Shown: positions 6,171 to 59,503 of the stretch, in pieces
How the letters are laid out: each line of letters begins with the position of its first letter
Position numbering within the stretch: position 1 is the stretch's first letter
DNA from: an uncultured Thermoanaerobaculia bacterium
GTDB taxonomy: Bacteria > Acidobacteriota > Thermoanaerobaculia > Multivoradales > JAGPDF01
Direction of reading: 5' to 3'
Length of the DNA stretch: 64,000 bases
Assembly (NCBI GenBank): GCA_964471955.1
Contig: CAYYIK010000007.1
Location: 2,729-66,728 of the forward strand
Position numbers and translations under genes: made by a program
The notes under the pieces: model-generated
The model's input: the letters and a program-made list of their open reading frames with translations, nothing else
Database searches by the model: none
Told to the model about the DNA's origin: nothing

Positions 6171-6330
6171 GAAAGAAGCAAAGGCCTTTTTGTTCAAGAC
6201 AAAGGCAAAGGCAGAAGCTTCCATAGAAGGGAAAAGAGGGGACTGGGGCGTGGGCTGGGCGGGTGAGTCGATTGCGGCGGGCCAGAAGCCGGGTGAAGCC
6301 TGGATTCCTTTCTCCGATGCCGAGGGCGAG

Positions 6331-6493
6331 GGGGCCGGGAAAGTTTCCCGGCAGGGAAGCTCGAAGGCCCCATCACCTGAGCGGTGGGCCGGCACTCCCG
6401 GTTCAGATCGGGGCCTGAGCGCAGGAGCGCACCCGCCGTCGTTGCCGGCACTCGTGCGCGCCGGTTCCCGGCCGGGGAACTTTCCCGGCCCCC
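6331..6493. repeat. Inverted-repeat pair (about 22 nt) inside the 405-bp repeat-rich spacer 6156-6560
   Basis: GGGGCCGGGAAAGTTTCCCGGC (6331-6352) matches the reverse complement of 6470-6493, GGGGGCCGGGAAAGTTCCCCGGCC. Each arm is itself nearly palindromic (CCGGGAAAGTTTCCCGG). Between them, GCCGGCACTC...CCGGTTC occurs twice, at about 6388 and about 6444. Confidence 0.75.
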
Positions 6494-6560
6494 TCGCTTC
6501 CACCTCCCGCTGAACGAGGACGAACATGTCCAGAACCAGGAAGTCCGAGAGGAAGCACCG

Positions 6561-7571
6561 ATGCTGAGAATGCCGGGGTTCCGGCTGCTGCGCCCCGAGA
6601 GTCTGGCGGAGGCGGCGGCCATGCTGGCGGGCGAGGGCGAGGGGGCGCGGCTGGTCGCCGGCGGGACCGACCTCTTCCCCAACCTCAAGCGCCGCCACCA
6701 GAAGGCGACGGCCGTCATCTCGCTCGCCCGCGCCGCGCGACGCGATCCGGCCCTCGCCGCGGTGTCGGTCGGGCCCGGTCCCGTCGGCGACTTGCGGCTC
6801 GGTCCGATGGCCCGCCTGTCGGCCATCGAGCGCGATCCGCGCGTGCGGGCCGGCTGGCCGGCGCTCGCCCGGGCGGTGGCGTCGATCTCCTCGCCGGTGC
6901 TGCGCAACATGGGGACGATCGGCGGCAACGTCTGCCTCGACACCCGCTGCACCTACTACAACCAGAACGAGGAGTGGCGGCGGTCGATCTCCTACTGCAT
7001 GAAGGCCGAGGGGAAGGTCTGCTGGGTCGCGCCCTCGTCGCCGCGCTGCTGGGCGGTGCAGAGCGCCGACTCGGTGCCGATGCTCATCGCGCTCGGTGCC
7101 CGCGTCCGTCTTCTCTCGGCCGCCGGCGAGCGCGAAGTGCCACTCGAGGCGCTCTACCGCGACGACGGGATGGACTACCTGACCCTGAGCCCCGGCGAGA
7201 TCGTCACCGGCATCGCGGTCCCCGCCGCATCCGCGGCCTCCCGGCTGCGCACCGCCTTCTTCAAGCTGCGCCGCCGCGGCTCGATCGACTTCGGCGTCCT
7301 GTCGGTCGCCGTCGCGCTGCGGCTCGAGGCGGATGTCGTCGCCGATGCGAAGATCGTCCTCGGCTCGATCGCGTCGTTCCCCTCCCCCGCCGCTGACGCC
7401 GCCGCCGAGCTCGTCGGCAAGCCGCTCACCGAGGAGACGATCCGCGCCGCCGCCGCGAAAACACGCACGGCCGCGACGCCGATGGACAACACCGACCTCG
7501 ACCCGCGCTGGCGCGGCCAGGTGACGCCGGTGTACGTCGAGCGCACCCTGCGCGAGGCGGCCGGTCTCTGA
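6561..7571 (+). CDS. Xanthine dehydrogenase family FAD-binding subunit with extra Cys-rich loop (HcrB-like)
   Basis: ATG at 6561 within the ORF-track frame 6384..7571; 336 aa. FAD motif LVAGGTDLFPNLK. A Cys-rich insertion C125-x4-C130-x15-C146-x7-C154-x8-C163 is absent from ordinary CoxM/XdhB-type subunits. Confidence 0.9.
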   Translation: MLRMPGFRLLRPESLAEAAAMLAGEGEGARLVAGGTDLFPNLKRRHQKATAVISLARAARRDPALAAVSVGPGPVGDLRLGPMARLSAIERDPRVRAGWPALARAVASISSPVLRNMGTIGGNVCLDTRCTYYNQNEEWRRSISYCMKAEGKVCWVAPSSPRCWAVQSADSVPMLIALGARVRLLSAAGEREVPLEALYRDDGMDYLTLSPGEIVTGIAVPAASAASRLRTAFFKLRRRGSIDFGVLSVAVALRLEADVVADAKIVLGSIASFPSPAADAAAELVGKPLTEETIRAAAAKTRTAATPMDNTDLDPRWRGQVTPVYVERTLREAAGL

Positions 7572-39765: not shown

Positions 39766-41189
39766 TCCAGCAGCGCCACCGCATCACCGCGGCGGTCCTC
39801 TTCGCGGGGGACGTCGTCGCAACGCTGGCCGCCTTCTTCGGCGCCTGGCTCCTCCGTTTCGAAGTCGAACTCGTTCCGCTGACCAAGAGCACGCCGGAGC
39901 TCGGCCGCTACGTCGAGCTGCTGCCGATCATCCTGCTGCTCTTCCCGCTGGTCTTCTACTTCCTCGGCCTCTACCGGCCGCGGCCGAGCGCCAGCCGGGT
40001 CGAGGAGGCGGTGGCCGTCCTCTCGGCGGTGCTGCTGGCGACCATCCTGCTGTCGGGCGTCGTCTCCTGGTACCGGCCGGCGCTGCGCCCCGGCAGCATC
40101 GAGTACTTCACCTACAGCCGCGCCTTCCTCGCCCTCTTCGCGGTGGTCCAGGTGGCGATGGTGGTGCTCGGCCGGGCCGCGGTGCGCTGGTTGCTGCACA
40201 GCGCCAGCGTCCACGCCGGCAGCGCGCAGCGCATCCTGGTGGTCGGCGCCGGCAAGCTCGGCCTCGAGATCACCTCCAAGCTGCTCGCCCACCGCGACCA
40301 CGGCCTCGAGGTCGTCGGCTTCCTCGACGACGACCCCAACAAGCTCGGCCGGCAGATTCTCGGCCGACCGGTGCTCGGCATGACGCGCGACGTCGAACGC
40401 GTCCTCGCCGAGCAGAAGATCGACCAGCTCTTCGTCGCCCTCCCCCTCGAAGCCCACAAGAAGATGATGCGCCTGCTGCAGGCGGTGGGCAGCGAGTGCG
40501 TCGAAGTCAAGCTCGTCCCCGACATCCTGCAGTACGCGACGATCAAGGCGACGCTCGAGGAGATCGACGGCACGCCGGTGATCAACCTCTCGCAGCTGCC
40601 GCTGCAGGGCTGGAACAGCCTGGTCAAGCGGCTGCTCGACGTCGTCCTGTCGGCCGCCGGCCTGGTGGTGCTGCTCCCGTTCTTCCCGCTGCTGGCGCTG
40701 ATCATCTGGCTCGACGACCGCGGCCCGATCTTCTACCGCCAGGAGCGCATGGGCCTCGACGGCCGCCCCTTCTGGATCTGGAAGTTCCGCTCGATGCGAG
40801 TCAACGCCGAGGCCTCCACCGGGCCGATCTGGGCCATCCAGGGGGATCCGCGGCGCACCGTCGTCGGCGGCGTGCTGCGCCGCTGGTCGATCGACGAGCT
40901 GCCGCAGCTGTGGAATGTGCTGCGCGGCGACATGTCGCTGGTCGGTCCCCGCCCCGAGCGCCCGACCTTCGTCCAGGAGTTCAAGCAGCGCCTGCCGCAG
41001 TACATGCTGCGTCACAAGGTCAAGGCCGGAATCACCGGCTGGGCCCAGGTGCACGGCTGGCGCGGCAACACCTCGATCCGCAAGCGGCTCGAGTACGACC
41101 TCTACTACATCGAGAACTGGTCGCTGGGGCTGGATCTGAAGATCCTCTGGATGACGCTCCGGCACGGCCTGCGCCACAACGCCCACTGA
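39762..41189 (+). CDS. Polyprenyl-phosphate glycosyl-1-phosphate transferase (WbaP/EpsB-type priming sugar transferase)
   Basis: The TTG at 39762 overlaps the upstream stop (TTGA). 475 aa. N-terminal TM helices are followed by the conserved C-terminal bacterial sugar-transferase domain (RMGLDGRPFWIWKFRSM...DELPQLWNVLRGDMSLVGPRPERP...YIENWSLGLDLKIL). Confidence 0.92.
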   Translation: MIQQRHRITAAVLFAGDVVATLAAFFGAWLLRFEVELVPLTKSTPELGRYVELLPIILLLFPLVFYFLGLYRPRPSASRVEEAVAVLSAVLLATILLSGVVSWYRPALRPGSIEYFTYSRAFLALFAVVQVAMVVLGRAAVRWLLHSASVHAGSAQRILVVGAGKLGLEITSKLLAHRDHGLEVVGFLDDDPNKLGRQILGRPVLGMTRDVERVLAEQKIDQLFVALPLEAHKKMMRLLQAVGSECVEVKLVPDILQYATIKATLEEIDGTPVINLSQLPLQGWNSLVKRLLDVVLSAAGLVVLLPFFPLLALIIWLDDRGPIFYRQERMGLDGRPFWIWKFRSMRVNAEASTGPIWAIQGDPRRTVVGGVLRRWSIDELPQLWNVLRGDMSLVGPRPERPTFVQEFKQRLPQYMLRHKVKAGITGWAQVHGWRGNTSIRKRLEYDLYYIENWSLGLDLKILWMTLRHGLRHNAH

Positions 41190-42694
41190 TGACCGACCAT
41201 CGCTTCGAGCCGCGGGCGCCCGCCGCCCGCCCGGCCATCGCCTCGTTCGCCGTCTTCGCCCTGGCCATGCTCGCCGCCGCCGGATGCCGCCGGCCCGAGG
41301 CTCCGGCCGCGGCCTCCACCGCCGCGACCCCGACGACGCCGCCGAACATCCTGCTGATCACCGTCGACACGCTGCGCGCCGACCATCTGTCGGCCTGGGG
41401 CTATCCCCGTCCCACCTCGCCGCGCCTCGACCAGCTCGCCGCCGAAGGGGCGCGCTTCGCGGCCGCCCAGGTACAGTGGCCCAAGACGGGGCCCTCCTTC
41501 GCCTCCATGTTCACCTCGACCTACCCGAAGGACAACGGCAACGTCCGCCAGGTCGGCATCCCGCTCCCCTGCGAGTTCACCACCCTCGCGGAACGCCTGC
41601 AGCGGGCCGGCTGGGCGACGCGCGCCGTGGTGGCCAACGGCGCGCTGGCGCGCGAGTTCAACTTCGACCAGGGGTTCGACGCCTACGTCGAGGCGTGGCA
41701 GAACCCGCACCCCGGGGGCGGCGATCCGATTCGCGCCGAGAACGTCACCCGCCTGGCGCTCGAGAACGCGGCCGAGTTGCCCGCCGACCGTCCATGGTTT
41801 CTCTGGGTGCACTACATCGATCCACACTTCCCCTATCGCGCCCCGGACGCCTGGCGCGACCGGTTCCAGGGGGACGAGCACTTCCGCGACGAGCCGCGCA
41901 TTCGGGTGCTCGACAAGTATTCGCAACAGCTGGCCGGCATCGGCAAGCGGCAGACCCTCGACGGCGAGGATCGCCTCGCCTTCTACGTGGCGCGCTACGA
42001 CGCCGAGATCGCCTACGCCGACGAACAGATCGGCGTCCTGCTCGACCGCCTGCGCGAGACGGGGCGAATGGCCGACACGGTGACCGCCTTCACTTCCGAC
42101 CACGGCGAGTCGCTCGGCGACCACGAGTACTACTTCGATCACGGCCGATTCGCCTTCCAGACCTGCCTGCACGTGCCCCTCGTTCTGCACTGGCCGGGGC
42201 GGATCGCGCCGGTGGTGCGCGAGGAACCGGTCGCCCTGCTCGACCTGGCGCCGACGCTGCTCGCCGCCGCCGGGCTGCTCCCCGAGACGGGTGCCTGGGC
42301 GCAGGGAGAGAGTCTCTGGCCGGCGCTGCGCGGCGGCGAGCCGGGGCGCCCGATCGTCTTCGCGGAAGGGGGCACCGCGACGAAGCGCCAGTGGATCAAG
42401 ACGGCGCGCGACGGCCGCTTCAAGCTGCAGCACACCAATCAGGCGGGCGAGCAGCGCTGGATCGCCGGCAAGGGGGTCGACTACGCCCTCTTCGACCTCT
42501 CCGCCGATCCCGGCGAGACGCGCAACGTCGCCGCCGAGCACCCCGAGGAGCTGGCGCGCCTGCAGCGCGCCCTCGCCGAGTGGTGGCGGCAGCCGCCGTT
42601 CGACGTTCGCACCGACGAACGGACCGACTGCGCCGCCGGCCGCGCCGTCGAGGCCGGCACGACCGAGCAGCTCGAGGCTCTCGGCTATCTCTGA
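41189..42694 (+). CDS. Sulfatase-like (alkaline phosphatase superfamily) lipoprotein with Thr at the nucleophile position
   Basis: The ATG shares 1 nt with the upstream stop. 501 aa. Lipobox LAAAGC. It has NILLITVDTLRADHL, and the site that normally reads C/S-x-P-x-R reads T-G-P-S-F (TGPSFASMFTSTYP). Confidence 0.8.
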   Translation: MTDHRFEPRAPAARPAIASFAVFALAMLAAAGCRRPEAPAAASTAATPTTPPNILLITVDTLRADHLSAWGYPRPTSPRLDQLAAEGARFAAAQVQWPKTGPSFASMFTSTYPKDNGNVRQVGIPLPCEFTTLAERLQRAGWATRAVVANGALAREFNFDQGFDAYVEAWQNPHPGGGDPIRAENVTRLALENAAELPADRPWFLWVHYIDPHFPYRAPDAWRDRFQGDEHFRDEPRIRVLDKYSQQLAGIGKRQTLDGEDRLAFYVARYDAEIAYADEQIGVLLDRLRETGRMADTVTAFTSDHGESLGDHEYYFDHGRFAFQTCLHVPLVLHWPGRIAPVVREEPVALLDLAPTLLAAAGLLPETGAWAQGESLWPALRGGEPGRPIVFAEGGTATKRQWIKTARDGRFKLQHTNQAGEQRWIAGKGVDYALFDLSADPGETRNVAAEHPEELARLQRALAEWWRQPPFDVRTDERTDCAAGRAVEAGTTEQLEALGYL

Positions 42695-42715
42695 GCCGGC
42701 GTCCTCTCCTTGGGT

Positions 42716-43074
42716 CTTCACCGGTTCGAGTGGGTGATCCCTTGTCGGGGCGGGACGGCTGGGCGGAACGACGCGTCCGGTTCAAGAGTGCGGACACAAG
42801 CTTCCAAAGAATGGAATGACGGCTCCCGGTGGAGTCTGGATCGGGCGTGGCGGGCTCGAAGCGACCGGAGTCCACCCCCGCCGTCTGGCCCCACCGGTCG
42901 CTGGCCGACCCCTACTCTGGCTTTTCCCCTATCTGGAAGCTTGTGTCCCCGGGCGTACACCTTGCGTCGGCATCGACCAGTTCGAGTTTCGGTGCCTGTC
43001 CCCGAGATAGGAGTCTTGGTGCCTGTCCCCGAAATACCGCCTCGCGGTGGCGCCACCCACTCGAACCGGGGAAG
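42716..43074. mobile_element. MITE-like non-autonomous element or structured non-coding element (359 bp)
   Basis: 21-bp terminal inverted repeats CTTCACCGGTTCGAGTGGGTG (42716-42736) and CACCCACTCGAACCGGGGAAG (43054-43074), with 1 mismatch. It is flanked by an identical 13-bp direct repeat GCGTCCTCTCCTT (42699-42711 and 43074-43086). A nested 15-bp perfect inverted repeat is GGACACAAGCTTCCA (42792-42806) with TGGAAGCTTGTGTCC (42934-42948). GC is lower than the surroundings, and there is no credible ORF. Confidence 0.55.
42991..43036. repeat. Two-copy direct repeat (27-bp period) inside the MITE-like element
   Basis: GGTGCCTGTCCCCGAGATA (42991-43009) and GGTGCCTGTCCCCGAAATA (43018-43036). Confidence 0.8.
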
Positions 43075-43085
43075 CGTCCTCTCCT

Positions 43086-44762
43086 TCAGCTTTCGACGAG
43101 AGATACAGCCGGCTCGGACCCGCGACCCCGGCGCAGCGCCAGGACGGCGAGCAGCGCCGCCAGGCCGAGCAGCACGGCGGCCGAGAGGCCATTCCAGAAC
43201 CCGACCTCGCCGAGGGCGGCGCCGAGGTTCGCCCACGCCAGCGTGGCGAGCGCCCAGATGGTGATCGTGGCTACGAAGAGCAGCGGCAGCAGGGTGAACA
43301 GATAGGGGCGGCGCCGGCGGCGCAGCCAGATGGTGAGCACCAGCAGGGTGAGCGCCGCCAGCAGCTGGTTGCTGGCGCCGAACAGGGTCCAGAACTTCGT
43401 CCAGGCCCCCTGCCCGCCGGCGAGCACGAACCAGACCGCCGGCGCCACCGTGGCCAGGGTGGCGATCGCCGCGCCGGTCCTGCCGCGCCAGCCCGACAGC
43501 TCCTGCAGCAGATAGCGGCCGAGCCGCGTCGAGACGTCGAGGGTGTCGAAGACGAACGTCGAGAAGGCCATGGCCCCGAACGTCACCGCGAAGGCGAGGT
43601 GCTGCTCCCCCACGACGAGGGCGAGGAAGCGCCCGATGCCGTTGCCGTAGATCGTCCCGGGCGACAGTCCGGCGATCGCCTCGGGGGGCGCGATCATGAT
43701 CGTCACCAGGGCGATCAGCGCGACGAACCCTTCCGCCAGCATGGCGCCGAAGCCCACCGGCTGACAGTCGCTCTCGCGCGCGATCTGCTTCGAGGTCGTC
43801 CCCGAACAGACCAGGCCGTGAAAGCCCGAGCAGGCACCGCACGCGATGGTGACGAAGAGGAAGGGAAAGAGTCCCCCCGTCACGCCGCCGGCGTTCCAGG
43901 CACGGAAGAAGGGCTGCTCGATCGACCAGCCGCCCAGCAGCACGCCGATCACGCCGGTGGCGAGCGCGGTGTAGAGGACGAAGCCACCCAGGTAGCCGCG
44001 CGGCTGCAGCAGCGCCCAGACCGGCACGACCGAGCCGAGGGCGCAGTAGACGAGGATCAGCACCGCCCAGGTCGCGTGATCGAACTGCAGCCAGGTCGAC
44101 ATCCGGGTGCCGGCCCAGCAGGCGGCGAAGGTGGCGGGGACGAAGATCGCGGTGACCAGCCAGAGCGGCGGCGCCAGGAAACGCTGCACCAGGCCGAGCA
44201 GCAGCGACAGCCCGAGGTAGAGCACCGCCGCCGCGGCCACCGCGCCGCCGGCGTGGAAGCTCGTTCCGCCCTCGCGCAGCTCTTCGGTGCCGGCGACGAA
44301 GCTGCCCGCCGTGATGTCGGCGAAGGCGACGATCACGTAGACGAGGGCGATCCAGATGAACAGCATCATCGCCCGCCCGGCGAGCGGTCCGAGCTCGTGG
44401 CGGGTGATCTCGGCGATCGAGTCGCCGCCGTGGCGCACCGAGACGGCGAGCGCCGAGAAGTCGTGCACCGCGCCGATGAAGACGACGCCGAATGCGATCC
44501 AGGCGAGGCAGGGGCCCCAGCCGAACGCCTGGCAGGCGAGGATCGGCCCGGCGATCGGTCCGGCCGCGGCGATCGCCGAGAAGTGCTGCCCGAACAGGTA
44601 GAAGCGACGGGTGGGAACGAAGTCGACGCCGTCGCGTCGCGACACCGCGGGCGTGGCGCGGCCGTCGTCGAGGCGGAACTGGCGTGCCACCCAGCCGCCG
44701 TAGAAGTGGTAGGCGGCGGCCAGCAGGCCGAGCAGCGCGACGCTGAGCAGTGTGAGGGACAC
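43086..44762 (-). CDS. cstA: Carbon starvation protein A (CstA family peptide/pyruvate transporter)
   Basis: 558 aa, GTG start. The conserved N-terminus is YHFYGGWVARQF...FVPTRRFYLFGQHFSAIAAAGPIAGPILA, and the protein is polytopic. Confidence 0.92.
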   Translation of the reverse strand: MSLTLLSVALLGLLAAAYHFYGGWVARQFRLDDGRATPAVSRRDGVDFVPTRRFYLFGQHFSAIAAAGPIAGPILACQAFGWGPCLAWIAFGVVFIGAVHDFSALAVSVRHGGDSIAEITRHELGPLAGRAMMLFIWIALVYVIVAFADITAGSFVAGTEELREGGTSFHAGGAVAAAAVLYLGLSLLLGLVQRFLAPPLWLVTAIFVPATFAACWAGTRMSTWLQFDHATWAVLILVYCALGSVVPVWALLQPRGYLGGFVLYTALATGVIGVLLGGWSIEQPFFRAWNAGGVTGGLFPFLFVTIACGACSGFHGLVCSGTTSKQIARESDCQPVGFGAMLAEGFVALIALVTIMIAPPEAIAGLSPGTIYGNGIGRFLALVVGEQHLAFAVTFGAMAFSTFVFDTLDVSTRLGRYLLQELSGWRGRTGAAIATLATVAPAVWFVLAGGQGAWTKFWTLFGASNQLLAALTLLVLTIWLRRRRRPYLFTLLPLLFVATITIWALATLAWANLGAALGEVGFWNGLSAAVLLGLAALLAVLALRRGRGSEPAVSLVES

Positions 44763-49787: not shown

Positions 49788-50309
49788 TCAGGTCCGCGGC
49801 GGGAAGACGCCCTGCAAGGCGATCGCGAAGTAGCACGTCAGGTACGGCTGCATGTTGTTGTGCGGCTGGTCGCCGCCGCCAGGAGCCAGGGCCTGGTCCG
49901 ACGCGCTCGCGTTCGGAGACGCCTGATACAGAGCTCCTCCGCCGGAGAGTGCGAAGGACGCAGAGGCGCTCGCAACATTGGTGTCGGCCAGGTCGACGAC
50001 GTTGGCGCGCAGAGTGTGGGAATGCGCGGGAATCTCCGATTGAAGGAGCGAAACCGTCTCGCTGCCTCCCGTCTCCCCCAGGTCGTGCAGGGACAATCCC
50101 GGGCCTTGTCCCGGCTGCATCGGTGCGCGACCCTGAAGGTCCGGCAGTGCGAAGTTGCTCTTGCCGTTGCCTCCGTATGTCGTGCCGAGCAGCGAAAAGA
50201 GCGCCGTATTCTGCGACAGGGGAAGAAGCTGCCCGTCGCACCACGCCCAGCCCTTCGGGGCGAAGTTGAACGGGAAGATCCGGATCTCAGCGACGAAGGG
50301 ATCTGCCAT
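49788..50309 (-). CDS. Phage tail-collar domain protein (MdpB/COG4675-like), paralogue 3
   Basis: 173 aa: MADPFVAEIRIFPFNFAPKGWAWCDGQLLPLSQNTALFSLLGTTYGGNGKSNFALPDLQGRAP...QPYLTCYFAIALQGVFPPRT. Confidence 0.9.
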   Translation of the reverse strand: MADPFVAEIRIFPFNFAPKGWAWCDGQLLPLSQNTALFSLLGTTYGGNGKSNFALPDLQGRAPMQPGQGPGLSLHDLGETGGSETVSLLQSEIPAHSHTLRANVVDLADTNVASASASFALSGGGALYQASPNASASDQALAPGGGDQPHNNMQPYLTCYFAIALQGVFPPRT

Positions 50310-50321
50310 GACGTCTCACTC

Positions 50322-50825
50322 TCAGGCCGGGCTCGGGAAGATTCCGAACAACGAAATGATGAAATTGACGCAGAGATAGGGCTGGAAGTTCGTGTGCGGC
50401 TGGCTGCCGCCCGTCGACCCGATCGCCGCAGCATTCATGTTTCCGCTCGGAGCGTCGTTGATGTACGGGGTGACGTTGAAGGAGTTCGCCGGGAGATTGC
50501 CCGAAGCGTTGATCTGGTCCCCGGTAACTCCGGCGGCGAGCAGCGGATGGCCGTGCGCCGGAATCTGCTGAATCGTGAGCGTGATCTCCTCCGCGCCTCC
50601 GGTCTCCGCGAGGATGAATCCGCTCCCCTGATGAATCGGAATCCGCCCGCGCAGGTCGGGCAGCGCGAAGGTGGACTGCCCGTCGCCTCCGTAGGTGGTG
50701 CCGATCAACTGGAACAACGTCTCGTTCTCCGAGATCGGCAGCAGCTGACCCTCGCACAGCATCCAGCCTGCCGGCGCGAAGTTTCCGCCGAACATCCGGA
50801 TCTCTCCAACGTAAGGTTGCGCCAC
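50322..50825 (-). CDS. Phage tail-collar domain protein, paralogue 2
   Basis: 167 aa. The GTG start is preceded by GAGGAGG, which overlaps the upstream stop. MAQPYVGEIRMFGGNFAPAGWMLCEGQLLPISENETLFQLIGTTYGGDGQSTFALPDLRGRIP...QPYLCVNFIISLFGIFPSPA. Confidence 0.9.
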   Translation of the reverse strand: MAQPYVGEIRMFGGNFAPAGWMLCEGQLLPISENETLFQLIGTTYGGDGQSTFALPDLRGRIPIHQGSGFILAETGGAEEITLTIQQIPAHGHPLLAAGVTGDQINASGNLPANSFNVTPYINDAPSGNMNAAAIGSTGGSQPHTNFQPYLCVNFIISLFGIFPSPA

Positions 50826-50835
50826 GACGGCCTCC

Positions 50836-51336
50836 TCAGTTCGGGCTCGGGAAAATGCCCTGGAGGGCGATACAGAAGCTGATCGTGAGGAACGGCTGCA
50901 TGTTCAGATGCGCCTGGCTTCCTCCGACGGCGGTCACGGTGGCGGAGCTCATGGCGACCAGGGATGCCGGCGCGTGGTAAGCGTTGTTGGCCCCTCCGAG
51001 GACCCTTCCCGCCGGATTCACGTTGCCGCCGGTCGAGGCCGAGGAGACCGCCAGCACATGCACGTGTTGCGGCATCTCCGCGATCGACAAGGTGTGGGCC
51101 TGCTCTCCCCCGCGCTCACCGAGCGTGTGCGCCGATCCGACGTGAATCGGGGCGCGCCCGCGCAGGTCGGGCAGCGCGAAATTGACGCGGCCGTCGCCGC
51201 CGAAGGTCGTTCCCAGGAGAGAAAACAGGGCCTGGTTCTGATTGATCGGCAACAGCTGGCCGTTGCAGAGGGCCCAACCCTTGGGAGCGAACTGGAAGCT
51301 GAACAGTCGAACTTCGCTCAGGAACGGTTCGGCCAT
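50836..51336 (-). CDS. Phage tail-collar domain protein, paralogue 1
   Basis: 166 aa with SD GAGAGGAAG. MAEPFLSEVRLFSFQFAPKGWALCNGQLLPINQNQALFSLLGTTFGGDGRVNFALPDLRGRAP...QPFLTISFCIALQGIFPSPN. Confidence 0.9.
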   Translation of the reverse strand: MAEPFLSEVRLFSFQFAPKGWALCNGQLLPINQNQALFSLLGTTFGGDGRVNFALPDLRGRAPIHVGSAHTLGERGGEQAHTLSIAEMPQHVHVLAVSSASTGGNVNPAGRVLGGANNAYHAPASLVAMSSATVTAVGGSQAHLNMQPFLTISFCIALQGIFPSPN

Positions 51337-51372: not shown

Positions 51373-54300
51373 TCACGGCAGCGGGCAGGCAGCGCCGCCC
51401 GGGGTATTGACGAAACCGCCGCCCGTAGGCACGGTATTCGACGCGATCGCCGAGGGCACTCCGTCTCCCGAGTTCCGCGCGATCAGGTAGTTCTGGACCG
51501 CGGTGTTGTCGTTGTTGGCGCCCGCGTATCCGCGCAGCGCAACGGTCGTCGCCTGCCGCTGGCGGAGTCGGATGTCTTCGCCTCCCGCCGGAATGTCGCT
51601 GGGCGCGCCCGCGGTCGAAACCGAGTTCTGGAGAGCCCCGGCTCCGCCCGCGTCGAGGCAGATCTGGTAGGTGTCTCCGGGCACTGTGCCGGCGTTCAGG
51701 TGAATCCCGTTCTTCGGGATCGAAGCGGTGGCCGGATTGGTACCCGGAAGCGTGATCAGATTGCCCGTGATCGTGGCGTTCAGGGCGCCGGGCTGCGCCG
51801 TCGCCCCGCCGCCAGTCAGCAGCTCGATGCCGAAGTTGTTGTACCAGCGGATCGTGTTGCCGCTGATCAGCGCGTCGATCGCCCCCTGGCCGACGCTCTG
51901 GATTTTGAGCGCCGATCCCTCCAGCGATCCGGAGTTGGGCGTCGCGGCCGCGCCGATCGTATTTCCCTGGAACGTCAGATCGAGGCTGCCCACGCCGGTC
52001 GGCTTGACGATCAACACCGCCGGCCCGACCGCGTCGCGGAAGCTGTTGTTCTGAACGACGAACGTGTCCGAGCTCGTGGCGCCGGCGAAGAAGGAAACTC
52101 CACCGCCGCCCGTCGCGATTCCGCCGTGGTTGTTGCTCAGCGTATTGCCCGTGAAGGCGAAGGTGAAGGCGCCGTTCGAGTTGTTGTTGACCTGGATCAG
52201 GTCGCCACGGGCGGACGTGAAGGCTCCATTCTGGACGGTGACGTTCATCGTCGCGCCAGCCGAACCGAGAGTCTCGAAGTAGGCCCCGTCGTTGCCGTCG
52301 GACAGGCTGTTGGCGCCGATCGTGACCCCGGAGAGAGTCACCGTGAGCGCTCCAGCGGTGTTGACGATCCTGAGATTGTCTTCGAAACCGCCGCTCACGT
52401 TGCAGTTCGTGAAGGTCGCCGTACCGGTCAGCTCGCTGAACCGGATACTCCCCTCGTCCGCCGCGGCGCTGTTGCCGTTGACGCCGTTGACGACGCTGTT
52501 GTCGAGGTTGAAACCCGTGACGGAAGCGCCGCGAATCGCGAAGTCGCCGAAGTCGTCGAGCTGCATCCAGGAGAACGACGGGTTCAGCGTGCTGGTGAGC
52601 GAGATACCGGTGCTCGTCGCGTTCCGAATCGTGCCGCCGGTCGCGGCCGAGCCCGTTCCGGAGACGATGAGCCTGCCTGCACCTCCCGTCGCATTGAGGA
52701 TCAGGCCGTTGGCCGGATCAGCAGCGGCCGTCGCATTTCCCGAGCTGATCGACCGGAAGCTCAGGTTCGAGGTCCCGATCGGCGTGCTGGTCACCCGCAA
52801 TGCGGTCGCGCTGACCGAGTCGATGGTGTTGATTCCGGTGATGTTCAAACCGAGCGCGTTGGTGTTGCTGGTCGCCGCGAAGCCCTCGCCGGTGGTGGTG
52901 TCGATGTCGAGTCCGCCGCTGAAGGTGATCGCCCGGCTGCCGGCGTTGCCGTTGAGCAGGATGCCGGCGCCGTTCTCGTCGACGGCGCCCGAGAGCAGCA
53001 AGTCGTCGCTCGCGTCGTCTCCGGCCCAGGTCGTGATCGAGACGGCTCGCGCCGTCGCCGAGTTGTTGGTGATCGTCCCGGCGTAGTTGATGCGGCCGTT
53101 GCCACCGCTGACGTTGAAAGCGGGTCCGGCCGCTCCCGCCGCGGTCGTGATCGTGCTGCCGGCGCCGGCGGTGAACTGGGCGTCGAAAGCCGGATTGATC
53201 GCGTCGAGCACCGTCGCCAGCGAGACGCCCGTCGTCGTCGTGTTCGTGCTCCGAATCGTGGTCAGCGGCAGCGAGGCGGTCAGGTTGGAAAGGTCGACCG
53301 CCGGACCGCCCGTCGCTTCCGCCATCCCCACGCCCGCGCCCACCGACACGCGCGTACCCGTTCCCGCACCGACGTTCACGGCGCCGGTGCCGCTGACGCG
53401 GATCGCGGCGCCGTTGTCGGCGAAGACGTCGAGGTCGGTGAAGGCGAGGTCGCCCGAGACGTTGGTCAGAACCAGACCGCTCGCGCCGACGCCGTTGCCC
53501 GGCGCGCCGACCACCGTGGCGCCGCCCGCGACCTGCTGATAGGCGCCTCCCGGCGTGGCGTCGAGCGTCAACGGACCCGTGAGCACCAGGCCCGAGCCGC
53601 CGGTGTTGCCGGAGACCACGTTGTCGTCGAAGGCCGTGACCTGAACGGTGCCGTTGGTCCTCGCCACGTCGAGGCCGGTGCCGCCGGCGGTGATGCTGTT
53701 GTCGTGGATCGAGAGCGTCAGCGTCCCGGTGCCGCCGGCGTTGACGTCGATCCCCTCGGCACCGGAGGCACGCACGGTGTTGTTCGCGATCGTCAAAGCG
53801 CCCGACCCGCCGAAGGCGCCGGTGAGCGTGACGTCGACGGCGTTCGCGTTGCCGGCCAGATTCAGGCCGACGATCTCGGTCGGGATCAGATCGGTGGCCA
53901 TCACCGCGCTGCCGCCGACCGTGGTGTTGTCGAGCATCGGCCGGGTACCCGGTGCGATCAGCACGACGGGCGAGGCACCGCCGTTCAGCACGACCGGGAT
54001 CGAGAGCCCCGCCCCTTCGCCCACCAGATGCTGACCCGCCTTGAGCGTGATGCCGGCGTTCTGCCCGGTGGTGGCGCCGTCGCCGTTGTAGACGAAGATC
54101 CAGTCGTTGGCACCCGAGGCGGTCTGCGCTTCGACCAGGGTGTCGAATGGATCGATCGAACGTCCGAGACCGCCGGCGGTCGCGTCGTTGCGGACGTACC
54201 AGACCCGCTGGAGGAACGAAATCGTCACCGTGCCCTGGACGCTCACGTCGCCGTCGGAGACGTTGTACGTGAAGCTGTCGTCGACCGTTCGCCCGGCCGG

Positions 54301-56514
54301 CGACGTGTAGCTGAACGTGCCGTCCGAGGCGACCGCGACCACCGCGCCGGCGGTCGCCGTACCGAGCGACGTGGTCAACGCCGCCGGGCCGTCCGGATCG
54401 CTGTCGTTGGCGAGCAGGTTCCCCGCCGCGAAGACGTAGGGACCGTTCGCGTCCGGCCCGGGATCGATTGCCGCGACCCGCAGCCGGGTGTTCGAAATCG
54501 TCTGGAACGACTCGCCGGTGATCACCGGAGGATCGTTGACCGGCGTAACGGTGACGCTCTTCGACGCCGTGTTGCTCGGATCGGCGCCGTCGTTCGCGAC
54601 GAAGGTGACGAGGCGGTCCGGCAGGGCCGTCGGGCTCTGGGAAGCGTTGGCGTAGAGGACCGAGCGCAGGCAGCCCTGGTAGACCGCGACCGTCGCCGTT
54701 CCCGAGATCGCCAGCGCGTGGCCCGGCGCGGAGACGACGAGGCCCGGGCAGGTTGTGCCCGGCGCAGCGACCGAGAGCGCCTCCTGGCCGCCGTTCTGCG
54801 GATTCGTCAGCGACACGATCGCCGAGACGAGATCCGCGTCGTCGGCGTCGGTGACGTTCAGCGCACCGTCGACCACCACCGCGCCGGCGTCTTCGACGAA
54901 CGAGGTCGCGCCGCCGCTGGTTGTGACCACCGGTACATCGTTGACCGCGGTGATCTCGACCGTCGACGTCGCGGCGGCGCTCGACTCGACGCCGTCGCTC
55001 GCGCTCCAGGTTACCGTGCGGTCGGACGGGTCGGGATCCTCCGAGCTGTTCTCGTAGGCGACCGAGCGCAGCGCCGCCTGCCAGGCAGCGACGGTATCGA
55101 GTCCGTTCAGGGCGAGGGTGCCGGTCGCCGGCGCGAAGACGCCGGTGATGCTGGGCGTGTTCGTGAACGACAGGACGTCTTCCCCGCTCTGGAAGTTGCC
55201 GGTGATCTGCACCGTCGCCGAGACCAGATTGGCGCTGTCGACGTCGCTGACCGTGAGCGCGGCGTCGACCGCGGTCGGCGGATCGTTCTCGGTGTAGGCG
55301 AGCGTGCCGCCGGCGACGACGACCGGCGGCGCGCGGTCGATCACGATCCGGGCGCGGGCCGTGGCCGGGCCGATCGGCGCGCCCGAGGCGTCCACCGTCG
55401 GGTCTCCCGCCGCCGCGGCGATCGTGTAGGCGAAGTCGTCGACGCCGTTGAAGCCGGCCGGCGGCGTGTAGACGAAGTGCCCGTCGGCGGCGACGTCGAC
55501 GCTGCCCCCCTGGCTGGTTGCCTGCCCCGCCGCCGGCACCGCGGCGAGCGAGTCGCCGTCCGGATCGGTGTCGTTGCCGAGCAGCGCGGGCAGCGCCGCC
55601 GTCGAGCTGTCGATCGGCTGGTCGGTGACCGTCCGGTAGACGTCGGGTCGTGCCAGCGGCGTCGTGCGCACCGAACCGGCGACCAGCGCCAGATTGGAGT
55701 CGAGGATGTCCGCGAGCTCGACGCCCGTGGCGCCGCCACCGGCGTTCGAGATCGTGATCCGGTAGCGAATGGTGTCTCCCGGCACGACCGCGCCGGGAAT
55801 CGGATCCCCGGCCGGCGTGCGGTCGACCTTGAGCGCCGCGAGTTCGGGAGCCGCCGTGCGCAGCTCCGAGAGCATCAGCGCCGGCGTCGCTTCCCCCGAC
55901 TCGACGCGAAGGACGATCGCGCCCACCGCGGAGAGATCCGCCGGCGTCGCCGCGCCGGGCGCCTGCGCCAGGCTCGAGAAGTCGACGAAGATGTCGACGG
56001 GAGCCGCGATCGCCGGCAGGACCAGGGCGCCGCGCGACACCGAATCGGCGTCCTCGTAGATCTCGAGCACCAGGGAGGTGCCCGCCGCCGCCGCGTCGAT
56101 GGTGAAACGGAAGGCGCCCGCGCCGCCGGCGGTCAGGTCGACGCCGCCCAGCCCGGCCGGGTCGATCGCGTCGGGGTCGCTGTCGCCGTCCCAGATCACG
56201 AAGACCGCACCGCGCGAGTCGGGCGTGGTCGCGGTGACGCCGACGTCCAGCGCGCCGCCCGCCACGCCGGCGGTGACCGGCCCCGCTCCGGCGAAGCGTT
56301 GCACCCGCAGTCCGCGGTTCTGACCGAGGATGTCGGCGCCGCCGGTGACCGCGTTGCTGGCGCCGCCGGGCGGATCCGAGATCACGGTCTGGTTGGTCGT
56401 GAACTGATCGACGACGACCTGGCCGGCGACCGGTGCGGCGGCCAGGACCAGTCCGGCGACGAGTGCGGCGAGCGCGGCGGGCCGTCGCGGCGAGGGTCTC
56501 ATGGCGCCTCTCAT
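51373..56514 (-). CDS. Giant secreted protein (1713 aa): unknown N-terminal domain, DUF11-like and cadherin/VCBS-like modules, then a long right-handed parallel beta-helix region
   Basis: The ATG overlaps the upstream stop (ATGA). Signal peptide RRPAALAALVAGLVLAAAPVAG. Modules seen: GDTIRYRITISNAGGGATGVELADIL (DUF11-like); NDTDPDGDSLAAV...GFNGVDDFAYTI (cadherin/VCBS-like); repeated ...VSDVDS.NLVSATV.I...AL.SV.Y.N... modules; and many Gly/Asn/Thr-rich beta-helix turns (NNTVRASGAEGIDVNAGGTGTLTLSIHDNSITAGGTGLDV). Confidence 0.85.
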   Translation of the reverse strand: MRGAMRPSPRRPAALAALVAGLVLAAAPVAGQVVVDQFTTNQTVISDPPGGASNAVTGGADILGQNRGLRVQRFAGAGPVTAGVAGGALDVGVTATTPDSRGAVFVIWDGDSDPDAIDPAGLGGVDLTAGGAGAFRFTIDAAAAGTSLVLEIYEDADSVSRGALVLPAIAAPVDIFVDFSSLAQAPGAATPADLSAVGAIVLRVESGEATPALMLSELRTAAPELAALKVDRTPAGDPIPGAVVPGDTIRYRITISNAGGGATGVELADILDSNLALVAGSVRTTPLARPDVYRTVTDQPIDSSTAALPALLGNDTDPDGDSLAAVPAAGQATSQGGSVDVAADGHFVYTPPAGFNGVDDFAYTIAAAAGDPTVDASGAPIGPATARARIVIDRAPPVVVAGGTLAYTENDPPTAVDAALTVSDVDSANLVSATVQITGNFQSGEDVLSFTNTPSITGVFAPATGTLALNGLDTVAAWQAALRSVAYENSSEDPDPSDRTVTWSASDGVESSAAATSTVEITAVNDVPVVTTSGGATSFVEDAGAVVVDGALNVTDADDADLVSAIVSLTNPQNGGQEALSVAAPGTTCPGLVVSAPGHALAISGTATVAVYQGCLRSVLYANASQSPTALPDRLVTFVANDGADPSNTASKSVTVTPVNDPPVITGESFQTISNTRLRVAAIDPGPDANGPYVFAAGNLLANDSDPDGPAALTTSLGTATAGAVVAVASDGTFSYTSPAGRTVDDSFTYNVSDGDVSVQGTVTISFLQRVWYVRNDATAGGLGRSIDPFDTLVEAQTASGANDWIFVYNGDGATTGQNAGITLKAGQHLVGEGAGLSIPVVLNGGASPVVLIAPGTRPMLDNTTVGGSAVMATDLIPTEIVGLNLAGNANAVDVTLTGAFGGSGALTIANNTVRASGAEGIDVNAGGTGTLTLSIHDNSITAGGTGLDVARTNGTVQVTAFDDNVVSGNTGGSGLVLTGPLTLDATPGGAYQQVAGGATVVGAPGNGVGASGLVLTNVSGDLAFTDLDVFADNGAAIRVSGTGAVNVGAGTGTRVSVGAGVGMAEATGGPAVDLSNLTASLPLTTIRSTNTTTTGVSLATVLDAINPAFDAQFTAGAGSTITTAAGAAGPAFNVSGGNGRINYAGTITNNSATARAVSITTWAGDDASDDLLLSGAVDENGAGILLNGNAGSRAITFSGGLDIDTTTGEGFAATSNTNALGLNITGINTIDSVSATALRVTSTPIGTSNLSFRSISSGNATAAADPANGLILNATGGAGRLIVSGTGSAATGGTIRNATSTGISLTSTLNPSFSWMQLDDFGDFAIRGASVTGFNLDNSVVNGVNGNSAAADEGSIRFSELTGTATFTNCNVSGGFEDNLRIVNTAGALTVTLSGVTIGANSLSDGNDGAYFETLGSAGATMNVTVQNGAFTSARGDLIQVNNNSNGAFTFAFTGNTLSNNHGGIATGGGGVSFFAGATSSDTFVVQNNSFRDAVGPAVLIVKPTGVGSLDLTFQGNTIGAAATPNSGSLEGSALKIQSVGQGAIDALISGNTIRWYNNFGIELLTGGGATAQPGALNATITGNLITLPGTNPATASIPKNGIHLNAGTVPGDTYQICLDAGGAGALQNSVSTAGAPSDIPAGGEDIRLRQRQATTVALRGYAGANNDNTAVQNYLIARNSGDGVPSAIASNTVPTGGGFVNTPGGAACPLP

Positions 56515-59444
56515 GGCACGACGGCGCTCCAGCGCGAGGTATCGCCCGTCTCGAATCCGTCATTGAACAGCAGCGGCGAGGGCCGCACGTAGAGCTGATC
56601 GAAGTGCGCGGTAAACAGGGCGTCCGTGGTTGTCCTGGCCTCGATCGTCCAGCGAGCCGAGGCGGTGCCGGCGGGCGCCCGCTGCGGGTCGACCAGTTCG
56701 AGCCAGGCTCCGGCCGAGTCGAAGAACGGCTGGGCGACTTCGACCGAACCCGCCGTTCCCGTGCAGCCGGCGCCGGTGAAGTACTCGACGCGTCGCGCCA
56801 CGGTCACCGGCGTGCCGGCGCTGGCGGCGATCCGCACGCGGGTCACCAGCTCATAGTCGGCGGCGACCAGCGGCGTGCACTGGGCGACGGAGAATTCCGA
56901 CGGACCCTGCGGCGGGCCGAGCAGCGGATCGATCCGCAGCGCCCCCGAGACCGGCGCGTCGTCGAGGTCGACGGCCGGATCGTGGATCACGTCGCCGGTG
57001 CCCTCGGGCGTCGCCTGCCAGGCCCGCAGGTCGCAGTCGAAGTGGCCGTTGAGCAGGCGATTGCCCGCATCGATCCGGAATCCGAGCTCGTGCTCGTCGT
57101 CGCCCGAGGGGGTCGAATCGCCGTCGAGCGGGTTGCCCGCGACGTCCTCGAGCGTCGGGCAGACCAGCAGCCGGTAGGGGCGGTCGCCGAGCGCTTCGCC
57201 GAAGGTCACGGTCGCGACCGACGGAGAAGCCTGATAGACGACTGCGGTGGCGTCGATCGCCACGTCGTCGCCGGCCGGTGGCCCGCACAGCGCGGTCGAG
57301 AACGCGCCGTCGGGACCGGTCGCGAACAGCCGGTAGTTGTCCGGGTTGGTGACGTCCTCGGGGTCGGCGTCGCCGGCCGGATCGGCCATCTCCTCGCTGA
57401 ATTCGAGCGCGAGCGCGGTCGGCGTGGCGAGCACCGTGTCGCACTCCGCGATCTCGCCGTCGGGGCTCGCGGGGACCGAGTCGACGATCACGATCGTCGG
57501 TGCGGTGAGGTCGAGCGCCACCGTCTCGCAGTCGTCGTTGTCGCCCGGGACCGGGTCGGGCCCGTTCGAGCCGTCGTCGGCGATCGAAGCGCAGTTGTCG
57601 ATCTCGGTCGTGCCCGGCGGCAGCGGGTCGTCGAGCTCGACGGCGAAGACGGCGATGCCCGCGCCGCCACCGCCATCGAGAGATCCGATCGCCAGATCAC
57701 AGGCGGTGCCGGCGGGTGCACCGTCGGCGCACGACCAGCCGGCGGTCGAGGCCGCGGCGTCGAAGGTGGTGTCGACCGGCACCGTCTCGGACAGGACGAC
57801 GCCGACAGCCGTCTGGTTGCCGGCGTTCGAATAGGCGAGATCGAAGGCGATCGTGTCACCCGGGAACGGCACGCCGCCCGAATAGCTCTTGACAATCGCC
57901 AGGTCCGGCGCGGCTTCGATCGGCGTGGAGTCCTCGGCGCCGTTGTCGCCCGGGTTCGGGTCGGCACCGTTGGCGCCGTCGTCGGCCACGCTGGCGACGT
58001 TGACCACCTCGCTGACGCCGGCGGGCAGCGGCGTCTCGACTTCGACGGCGAACGTCGTCGAGCCGCTCCCCCCGCCCGCCACCGCACCTACCGCGTACGT
58101 GCAGGCGGTGCCCTCGGGCGAGCCGTCCGGGCACGACCAGCCGGGCGTCGAAGCCGCGGCGTCGAAGACCGTGAACGGCGGCACGAGCTCCGACAGTACG
58201 ACGCCGGTCGCCCCCTGGTTGCCGCCGTTCGACCAACCAAGCGCGTACGGGATCGTGGAACCAGGAGTCGACGTGATCCCGCCGTCACTCTTGGTCAGCG
58301 CGAGGTCCGGCTGGGCGTCGACAGGCGTGGTGTCCGAGGCCGAGTTGTCGCCGGGATTCGGATCGGCGCCGTTGACGCCGTCGTCGGCGATCGAGGCCGT
58401 GTTGGCGATCTCGGTGACGCCGGCGGGGACCGGATTCGCGACGGTAACCGCGAAGGTCGCCGAGCCCGAGGCGCCGCCGCCGACGAGCGAACCGACCGCG
58501 AGCGTGCAGACCGCGCCCGGATTGCCGTCGGGGACGCACAGCCAGCCGGCCGTCGACGCGCCCGGGGCGAAGACCGCGTTGGCCGGAACGGTCTCGCTGA
58601 GCGTCACGCCGGTCGCCTCCTGATTGCCGTCGTTGGCGTAGGAGAGGACGTAGGCGACGGTCGCGCCCGGGACCGCCGAGATTCCGCCGTCGCTCTTGGC
58701 CAGGGTCAGGTCGGGCGCGGCGTCGACCGGAGTGGTGTCGGTCGAGCTGTTGTCGGCCGGCGTCGGGTCGGCGCCGTTGGCACCGTCGTCGGCGATCGTC
58801 GCCGTGTTCGAGATCTCGTCGAGCCCCGCCGGCACCGGCGAGTCCACAGTGACCGCGAAGGTCGCCGAACCCGCAGCGCCGCCGCCGGCGAGCCCGCCGA
58901 CCGTCAAGTTGCAGACCGACCCCGGGTTGGCGTCCGGAACGCAGATCCAGCCCGCGGTCGAGGCGCCGGCGTCGAAGGTGGTGCTCGCGGGCACCACTTC
59001 GCTCAGCGTCACGCCGCTCGCCGCCTGGTCGCCGTCGTTGGCGTAGGCGAGCAGGTAGGCGACGGTTCCGCCCGGAACGACCGAAACGCCGCCGTCGCTC
59101 TTGGCCAGGCTGAGATCCGGCTGGGCAACGACCGGTGTGAGGGTCGGGTCCTGGGCGCCCGGCTCGCCGGGATCGTCCGTGAGCAGCGTGGCGGCGTTGG
59201 TCGCCTGGATGGTCGCCTGATTGGTCACCTCGACGACTCCGGCCGGCAGCGGCGTGTCGACGGTCACCAGGAACTCGATGGTGACCGCGCTGCCTGCCGG
59301 CAGGATGCCGATCGACGTGTCCTGCGCCCACGCGGTCGCGGCGGCGCCGAAGGCCGCGCCTGCGATCAGCCATCTGCGAAGCCACGCGTGCCGCGAAACC
59401 AACCGCTCGCTCCTTCCGTCGACGACGGGATGCGGACGCAGCAT
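56511..59444 (-). CDS. Secreted DUF11-repeat protein (4 full and 1 partial repeat of about 133 aa) with an Ig-like and a CenC/CBM4_9-like domain and the C-terminal GFExGD-W tag
   Basis: ATG 59444 is preceded by GGAG; the track ORF starts at TTG 59468. Signal WLRRWLIAGAAFGAAATAWAQD. Repeats read PDL.LAKSDGG......G.TVAY.L.YAN.G.Q.A.GV.LSE.VP, each with two Cys. Then NGHFDCDLRAWQ (CBM-like). The protein ends LFNDGFETGDTSRWSAVVP. Confidence 0.88.
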   Translation of the reverse strand: MLRPHPVVDGRSERLVSRHAWLRRWLIAGAAFGAAATAWAQDTSIGILPAGSAVTIEFLVTVDTPLPAGVVEVTNQATIQATNAATLLTDDPGEPGAQDPTLTPVVAQPDLSLAKSDGGVSVVPGGTVAYLLAYANDGDQAASGVTLSEVVPASTTFDAGASTAGWICVPDANPGSVCNLTVGGLAGGGAAGSATFAVTVDSPVPAGLDEISNTATIADDGANGADPTPADNSSTDTTPVDAAPDLTLAKSDGGISAVPGATVAYVLSYANDGNQEATGVTLSETVPANAVFAPGASTAGWLCVPDGNPGAVCTLAVGSLVGGGASGSATFAVTVANPVPAGVTEIANTASIADDGVNGADPNPGDNSASDTTPVDAQPDLALTKSDGGITSTPGSTIPYALGWSNGGNQGATGVVLSELVPPFTVFDAAASTPGWSCPDGSPEGTACTYAVGAVAGGGSGSTTFAVEVETPLPAGVSEVVNVASVADDGANGADPNPGDNGAEDSTPIEAAPDLAIVKSYSGGVPFPGDTIAFDLAYSNAGNQTAVGVVLSETVPVDTTFDAAASTAGWSCADGAPAGTACDLAIGSLDGGGGAGIAVFAVELDDPLPPGTTEIDNCASIADDGSNGPDPVPGDNDDCETVALDLTAPTIVIVDSVPASPDGEIAECDTVLATPTALALEFSEEMADPAGDADPEDVTNPDNYRLFATGPDGAFSTALCGPPAGDDVAIDATAVVYQASPSVATVTFGEALGDRPYRLLVCPTLEDVAGNPLDGDSTPSGDDEHELGFRIDAGNRLLNGHFDCDLRAWQATPEGTGDVIHDPAVDLDDAPVSGALRIDPLLGPPQGPSEFSVAQCTPLVAADYELVTRVRIAASAGTPVTVARRVEYFTGAGCTGTAGSVEVAQPFFDSAGAWLELVDPQRAPAGTASARWTIEARTTTDALFTAHFDQLYVRPSPLLFNDGFETGDTSRWSAVVP

Positions 59445-59503
59445 AGAGACTCCGCAGGCGCGATACAAGCGTCACGCGACGGTTTCGTCGTGGCGCGCGC
59501 GGC

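Follow-up and report, generated by a model that had tools for sequence, protein, structure and literature searches.

In an uncultured Thermoanaerobaculia bacterium (Acidobacteriota), what kind of sequence separates the sulfatase gene from the convergent cstA gene, and how did it arrive there? The question arises in a 64,000-nt stretch of contig CAYYIK010000007.1 (assembly GCA_964471955.1, positions 2,729 to 66,728; hereafter the window, whose coordinates are used throughout), where a spacer of 391 nt (42695-43085) between the two genes holds a set of nested repeats. A preliminary description, made from the letters of the window alone, had seen in the spacer a non-autonomous mobile element with terminal repeats and a flanking duplication, or alternatively a structured non-coding RNA (ncRNA) or a regulatory element. 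We consider it to be a non-autonomous DNA transposon of the miniature inverted-repeat transposable element (MITE) type that inserted once into a 16-nt spacer between sulfatase and cstA, and we give this reading a probability of about 0.6. On alignment of public assemblies, the element is polymorphic within a Thermoanaerobaculia population, and the same alignments show it to be mobile DNA that entered the site, not a conserved RNA gene.

From homologues of CstA and the sulfatase, the orthologous region was located in public assemblies; names carried by cluster members put the organism in Thermoanaerobaculia, Acidobacteriota. One of these loci (L061, Logan SRR24881069) carries the empty site. 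Both flanks of this locus are 98.5-98.9% identical to the window, and the stop codons of its sulfatase and cstA genes are 16 nt apart. In the plus orientation the junction reads TGA-GCCG-GCGTCCGCTCCTT-CA, with one 13-mer that differs by a single substitution from the 13-mer present on either side of the element in the window. On L061, the window aligns by BLAST as two segments that overlap precisely across the 13-mer, and the window exceeds L061 by exactly 375 nt, corresponding to an element of 362 nt plus a 13-bp duplication; the insertion target sequence is GCGTCCKCTCCTT. The preliminary description had proposed a search for an empty site with a single 13-mer, and such a site thus exists, with one mismatch. 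By the filled/empty comparison the element measures 362 bp, against the 359 bp given there.

The same element sits at the same site in six other independent assemblies from different samples, with 0-1 single-nucleotide polymorphism (SNP) per copy. It is complete in SRR18230991 (L067/L159, 99.77% identity to the window over 21.7 kb), in contig Ga0130016_10005095 of JGI 3300009868 (L158, 99.6% over 13.4 kb), in SRR32005130 (L160, 99.7%, a contig seen in four samples), and in SRR20986597 (L161, 99.6%), and it is partial in SRR14117730 (L068, 99.1%) and SRR12103081 (L162, 98.8%). Since the element recurs in six independent assemblies from different samples, it is no assembly artefact. Over all filled loci, only two positions of the element are polymorphic, 42884 and 42981, the latter being a T/C variant in L158 and L162 that falls within the terminal-repeat core copy at 42976-42987; 0-1 SNP in 362 nt is on par with the background divergence. 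The two partial copies come from Logan contigs that break within the element, L068 at window position 42951 and L162 at 43000. These breaks may reflect low coverage, or a branch of the assembly graph arising from a further copy or a longer variant.

An empty site might also record a loss. If the element were ancestral, a precise deletion through slippage or recombination between the 13-bp repeats would leave one 13-mer, which is the state of L061; such a history, however, still requires an insertion to make the repeats in the first place, and it is at odds with the more distant relatives. In the outgroups (L058, L059/L060, and L062, at ~92% nucleotide identity) the sulfatase-cstA order is kept around a spacer of 70-76 nt without significant similarity to the element, so that absence is the ancestral state. 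In addition, L061 matches the state of outgroup L058 at four of the six sites that differ over the final 75 nt of cstA, and the filled allele is therefore the derived one there. A loss of the element in L061 thus has only a slim chance of being correct. Parsimony favors a single, recent insertion in the ancestor of a shallow sub-species clade, followed by vertical inheritance. A segment of the L058 spacer, AAGTTCGAGGTGGGCG, was also considered as a relative of the terminal repeat and was rejected, its local alignment not being significant against shuffles.

The flanks of the insertion are themselves uneven. The derived changes of the filled allele cluster directly beside the insertion, at the 3' end of cstA (43091-43131), where 6 of 45 nt distinguish the filled from the empty allele, against an average of ~1.2%. 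The cluster could stem from repair-associated mutation or from an imported recombination tract. The differences in the sulfatase gene are patchy as well (42278-42364 and 42592-42688) and are common to subsets of the filled loci (L162 on the one hand; L067, L160, and L161 on the other). Such clustering of flank mismatches points to homologous recombination within the population.

The insertion leaves both flanking reading frames unaltered. The last base of the right 13-mer is the first base, on the plus strand, of the cstA stop triplet TCA (43086-43088), and this stop codon is preserved, its last base being restored by the duplicated 13-mer. With both reading frames intact, the insertion was probably neutral. 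Because the sulfatase gene, which is the final gene of a glycosyltransferase/sugar-transferase (polysaccharide) cluster, converges with cstA, the region of the element is a 3'/3' spacer and neither a promoter nor a leader. The features of the locus are collected in the table.

Table. Coordinates of the element, its parts, and the two flanking genes in the window.
Feature	Position	Strand	Remark
Sulfatase gene	41189-42694	+	stop 42692-42694; Pfam Sulfatase, E 3e-51
Left copy of the 13-bp target-site duplication, GCGTCCTCTCCTT	42699-42711		begins 4 nt past the sulfatase stop
Inserted element, 362 bp, non-coding	42712-43073		from filled versus empty site comparison
GGGT, 4 bases between left duplication and left terminal repeat	42712-42715		read from the sequence
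Left terminal inverted repeat, CTTCACCGGTTCGAGTGGGTG	42716-42736	+	pattern search
Internal terminal-repeat core motif, CCGGTTCAAG	42777-42786	+	fourth copy, found in the follow-up
Nested inverted repeat, left arm, perfect 15-nt core GGACACAAGCTTCCA	42792-42816		repeat search
Nested inverted repeat, right arm	42924-42948		repeat search
Internal terminal-repeat core copy, ACCAGTTCGAGT	42976-42987	+	directly 5' of the tandem repeat
Tandem repeat, 27-nt unit, 2.0 copies, 88%, perfect core GGTGCCTGTCCCCGA	42984-43036	+	repeat search
Right terminal inverted repeat, CTTCCCCGGTTCGAGTGGGTG	43054-43074	-	pattern search
Right copy of the 13-bp target-site duplication, GCGTCCTCTCCTT	43074-43086		exact repeat of the left copy
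CstA-family carbon starvation protein gene	43086-44762	-	stop 43086-43088; Pfam CstA, E 9e-124

The repeats listed in the preliminary description were all recovered. The exact 13-bp direct repeats lie where it had placed them and are unique in the window, in which GCGTCCTCTCCTT occurs exactly twice with one mismatch allowed (0.15 occurrences expected). The terminal inverted repeats are 21 nt long and complementary at 20 of 21 positions, as described, with a perfect core of 16 nt, and their pairing reaches 38 nt at 76%; no other matches to the terminal repeat with up to three mismatches exist in the window (expected 0.01). At the right end, terminal repeat and direct repeat share the base at 43074, which makes the boundary ambiguous by 1 nt: the duplication measures 12 bp if this base is assigned to the element and 13 bp otherwise. 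Inside the element, the nested perfect 15-bp inverted repeat extends to arms of 25 nt at 84%, and both the two-copy direct repeat with its 27-bp period and the third, degenerate copy of the terminal repeat are present as reported. The further core motif CCGGTTCAAG may be a candidate subterminal transposase-binding site. Four of the six matches to CCRGTTCRAG in 64 kb lie inside the element, for a pattern picked after the sequence had been viewed. Both of the same-strand core copies, like the 27-nt repeats close to the right end, have the look of subterminal binding sites.

Dinucleotide shuffling of the 396-nt region, repeated 1000 times, gave no perfect inverted repeat longer than 13 nt, as compared with the 16 and 15 nt observed, and a perfect direct repeat of at least 13 nt appeared in 5 of the 1000. 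The terminal and internal repeats are well beyond chance.

The composition of the element sets it apart from its surroundings. Its G+C content is 65.5% versus 72% in the window and the adjacent sequence, and its G+C at third codon positions (GC3) is 0.62-0.68 and flat over the six frames, versus 0.83-0.95 in the genes of the window. The base composition of the element is foreign, and the element is non-coding: a six-frame translation, used as bait to catch spurious open reading frames called in other copies, gave 0 matches among 5.8 billion predicted proteins, and no Pfam match was obtained in the six frames at E<=1.

Long nested inverted repeats in an intergenic position could equally belong to a native structured ncRNA gene or a cis-regulatory element, which was the alternative of the preliminary description. 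Such a gene is nevertheless absent from a strain with 98.5-98.9% identity and from the 92% relatives of the same gene order, and the sequence is not conserved beyond one sub-species clade. In 42000-43800 no Rfam family matched at E<=1, and nowhere in the window did one reach the gathering score; no promoter-like or terminator-like sites were found in the element region, which lies between two 3' ends. The long rod into which an RNA from this region had been expected to fold gave way to multibranched minimum-free-energy structures in which the terminal repeats form the closing helix; their z-scores, -1.9 on the plus strand and -1.5 on the minus strand, are unremarkable. A native RNA gene or regulatory element at this site is hardly credible against these observations. 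Two more specific candidates were also rejected. A transfer-messenger RNA (tmRNA) or a transfer RNA (tRNA)-like RNA was considered from TTCGAGT, which resembled a T-loop; ARAGORN found no tRNA or tmRNA, Rfam was likewise empty, and the supposed T-stem is unpaired. The Shine-Dalgarno-like role suggested for the direct repeat fails on position, as the repeat sits after two stop codons and no well-placed start was seen by eye downstream, the nearest start noticed beyond the cstA-side copy being a GTG ~21 nt off.

Prokaryotic MITEs measure ~50-800 bp and usually generate duplications of 2-10 bp (PMC11602168). With 362 bp, 21-nt terminal repeats, no coding capacity, and a duplication matched by an empty site, the present element agrees with a MITE in these points. 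It is similar to bacterial MITEs such as Correia/NEMIS, RUP, MITEAba12, and the TIMEs in its small size, its non-coding nature, its intergenic position, its terminal repeats of more than 15 bp, its flanking duplication, and its presence or absence in different strains. In contrast to these, it is known from one locus, has no known parent insertion sequence, and shows no similarity in plasmid or phage collections. In the mechanism that we favor, a transposase supplied in trans would have bound the terminal repeats, possibly along with the 27-nt repeats and the CCRGTTCRAG copies of the interior. The ends of the element would then have been joined to target strands cut 13 nt apart, and gap repair would have produced the 13-bp duplication, which is itself observed. 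The inserted copy would since have been inherited vertically and shuffled through homologous recombination. The parent autonomous element may be located elsewhere in the genome, may have been lost, or may have been present only transiently.

Several observations weigh against a MITE-type transposon. Its 13-bp duplication, already called long in the preliminary description, is indeed beyond the 2-10 bp usual for MITEs (PMC11602168); the four bases GGGT at the left end have no counterpart at the right end; all copies seen sit at one locus; and neither a second copy nor a transposase with matching ends turned up in the collections searched. The last point draws on several searches. The rest of the 64-kb window contains no second copy. 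Among 185,579 GTDB representative genomes, 57 single matches to an 18-mer of the terminal repeat were seen, in unrelated taxa; with similarity over no more than about 20-30 nt, they are chance matches. A 20-mer gave three matches in JGI metagenome contigs, in apparently unrelated coding-like sequence and with no similarity past the seed, and three seeds gave 89 loci in IMG/VR viral contigs, none with extended similarity. BLASTN of the whole element against plasmids and phages returned nothing, and each 42-nt end returned chance matches only against plasmids. The metagenome scan missed Ga0130016_10005095, which carries both terminal repeats intact, and the scanned collection is consequently no superset of the JGI data reached via proteins. 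The negatives for copies and transposase are weak because exact seeds were needed, the source genome lies outside the collections, and a known positive was missed. As for the window itself, the Pfam scan covered likely genes over most of its length, with a few stretches outside the scan, together with precomputed matches for 33-55 kb, and several open reading frames had no match; no transposase, integrase, Cas1, or polB was found among the genes so scanned, and for these the earlier statement that the window lacks a transposase holds. The mobile insertion of the preliminary description is accordingly borne out by the empty site in L061 and by distant relatives that lack the element, while the multiple copies and the cognate transposase that it had looked to were not found in these searches.

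Terminal-repeat matches of up to 23/23 nt, for example CACCCACTCGAACCGGGGAAGCG, were also observed in four loci from unrelated taxa (L053, L010, L065, and L066). They lie in coding-looking sequence without other similarity to the element and are probably a recurrent codon string (R-F-E-W-V in one frame), unrelated to it.

The restriction to one locus also suits a different history, in which a full-length mobile element (insertion sequence, transposon, or casposon-like) entered the site, made the 13-bp duplication, and later lost its interior by deletion down to the two ends, so that the unit never moved as a miniature. The interior, a patchwork of subterminal-type repeats, is compatible with such an in-situ remnant, and the contig breaks at 42951 and 43000 could mark a graph branch, although low coverage would explain them equally. 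On the other hand, two events, insertion and deletion, would have to fall within a clade that has diverged by ~1% or less, the same short form is present in all seven readable filled loci, and no remnant of a transposase is visible in any frame. We regard reduction in place as rather unlikely; since all known copies occupy one locus, these data do not separate it from transposition as a MITE.

The element is of a known kind, MITE-like, with an unusually long 13-bp duplication. As this length falls outside the usual MITE range, it limits which enzyme moved the element. In the case of the IS4 subgroup of the IS4 family, direct repeats measure 10-13 bp and the ends carry the signature -AATR--------WTW---- (PMC2266710, Table 1). 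The 13-bp duplication is within this range, whereas the signature is absent from the element ends CTTCMCCGGTTCGAGTGGGTG and GGGTCTTCACC.

A duplicated 13-mer might instead be the attL/attR core of a miniature site-specific integrative element, which would have integrated as a small circle through a trans-acting recombinase of the tyrosine or serine type; the terminal inverted repeats would then be core-type binding sites of the recombinase. The count of identical 13-mers, two when the site is filled and one when it is empty, fits an attachment core as well as a target-site duplication, and a length of 13 bp is commoner among attachment cores than among MITE duplications. The details fit less well: the host flanks at the 13-mer do not, by eye, resemble the repeat arms as B/B' should, the left arm lies 4 nt away whereas the right arm adjoins it, the empty-site 13-mer is one base off the duplicated one, and no integrase is present among the window genes scanned. 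Both the integrative origin and the role of the repeats that it entails therefore appear quite improbable. Cis-mobilizable elements (CIMEs) and decayed integrative elements, which are bounded by attachment sites, derive from integrative elements with tyrosine or serine recombinases, usually at tRNA genes or conserved gene ends. They share with the present element a short non-coding insert between identical direct repeats and an empty site with one copy, but they are without tight terminal inverted repeats next to the core, and no recombinase was found among the window genes scanned.

Casposons, which are large, self-synthesising, and Cas1-dependent and carry cas1 and polB, offer a further comparison. 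According to two papers (PMC4046053, PMC4779613), they bear terminal inverted repeats and long duplications (median 15 nt, overall range 1-27, and for Methanosarcina mazei 14 nt); insertion takes place in intergenic sequence or directly beyond the 3' end of a gene, which stays undamaged, the bacterial ones all being intergenic, and a terminal repeat sometimes overlaps the duplication. The 13-bp duplication of the present element is near the typical 14-15 nt, yet outside it, and within the range of 1-27. The likeness thus concerns the length of the duplication and the type of site, and extends to the 1-nt overlap of repeat and duplication; the differences are that the element has only 362 bp and that neither cas1 nor polB occurs among the window genes scanned. 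From the 13-bp duplication, the intergenic site just past a stop codon, and the 1-nt overlap, one could read the trace of an integrase that is non-DDE or unusual in some other way, with a Cas1-type casposase as the leading candidate and, failing that, an undescribed transposase family with a 13-nt stagger. We hold this to be very unlikely, and the resemblance to casposons would serve as a lead only. Miniature casposon derivatives were not found by a term search of PMC4779613 or in the passages of PMC4046053 that were consulted, and a literature search on casposon-derived MITEs and 13-bp duplications yielded nothing relevant beyond general MITE surveys. If a casposase were responsible after all, the element would represent a miniature casposon derivative mobilised in trans, the first of its kind, and from Acidobacteriota.

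Few studies, to our knowledge, have dealt with mobile elements of the uncultured Acidobacteriota class Thermoanaerobaculia, and the filled/empty pair at ~99% identity provides a clean before/after record of one in this class. Identifying the enzyme that moved the putative MITE would either add to a known family (IS4-like) or uncover something more surprising. Annotation of the region as an RNA gene or a regulatory element should be avoided, and the insertion is usable as a strain marker for a population found across at least seven public samples.

Other repeats in the window were also observed. An inverted repeat at 6326-6358 and 6465-6497 (GCGAGGGGGCCGGGAAAGTTTCCCGGCAGGGAA ...) has 33-nt arms that are 94% complementary and 106 nt apart. 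It is placed between genes of the xanthine dehydrogenase family, for the molybdopterin-binding (3588-6155) and FAD-binding (6384-7571) subunits, and is without sequence similarity to the element at 42.7 kb; it may represent a further miniature element or else a structured element of the intergenic region. At 57533-59075, a unit of about 402-405 nt is repeated in tandem four to five times with 68-74% identity; these are coding domain repeats in a gene on the minus strand (56511-59468) for a DUF11-repeat protein of 985 residues. In the regions 50137-51336 and 51373-56514, three tandem paralogues of ~166 residues with the phage-tail-fibre 'Collar' domain (PF07484) adjoin the gene of a cadherin/Big_9-repeat protein of 1713 residues, the annotation of both being taken from the precomputed Pfam matches of L067.

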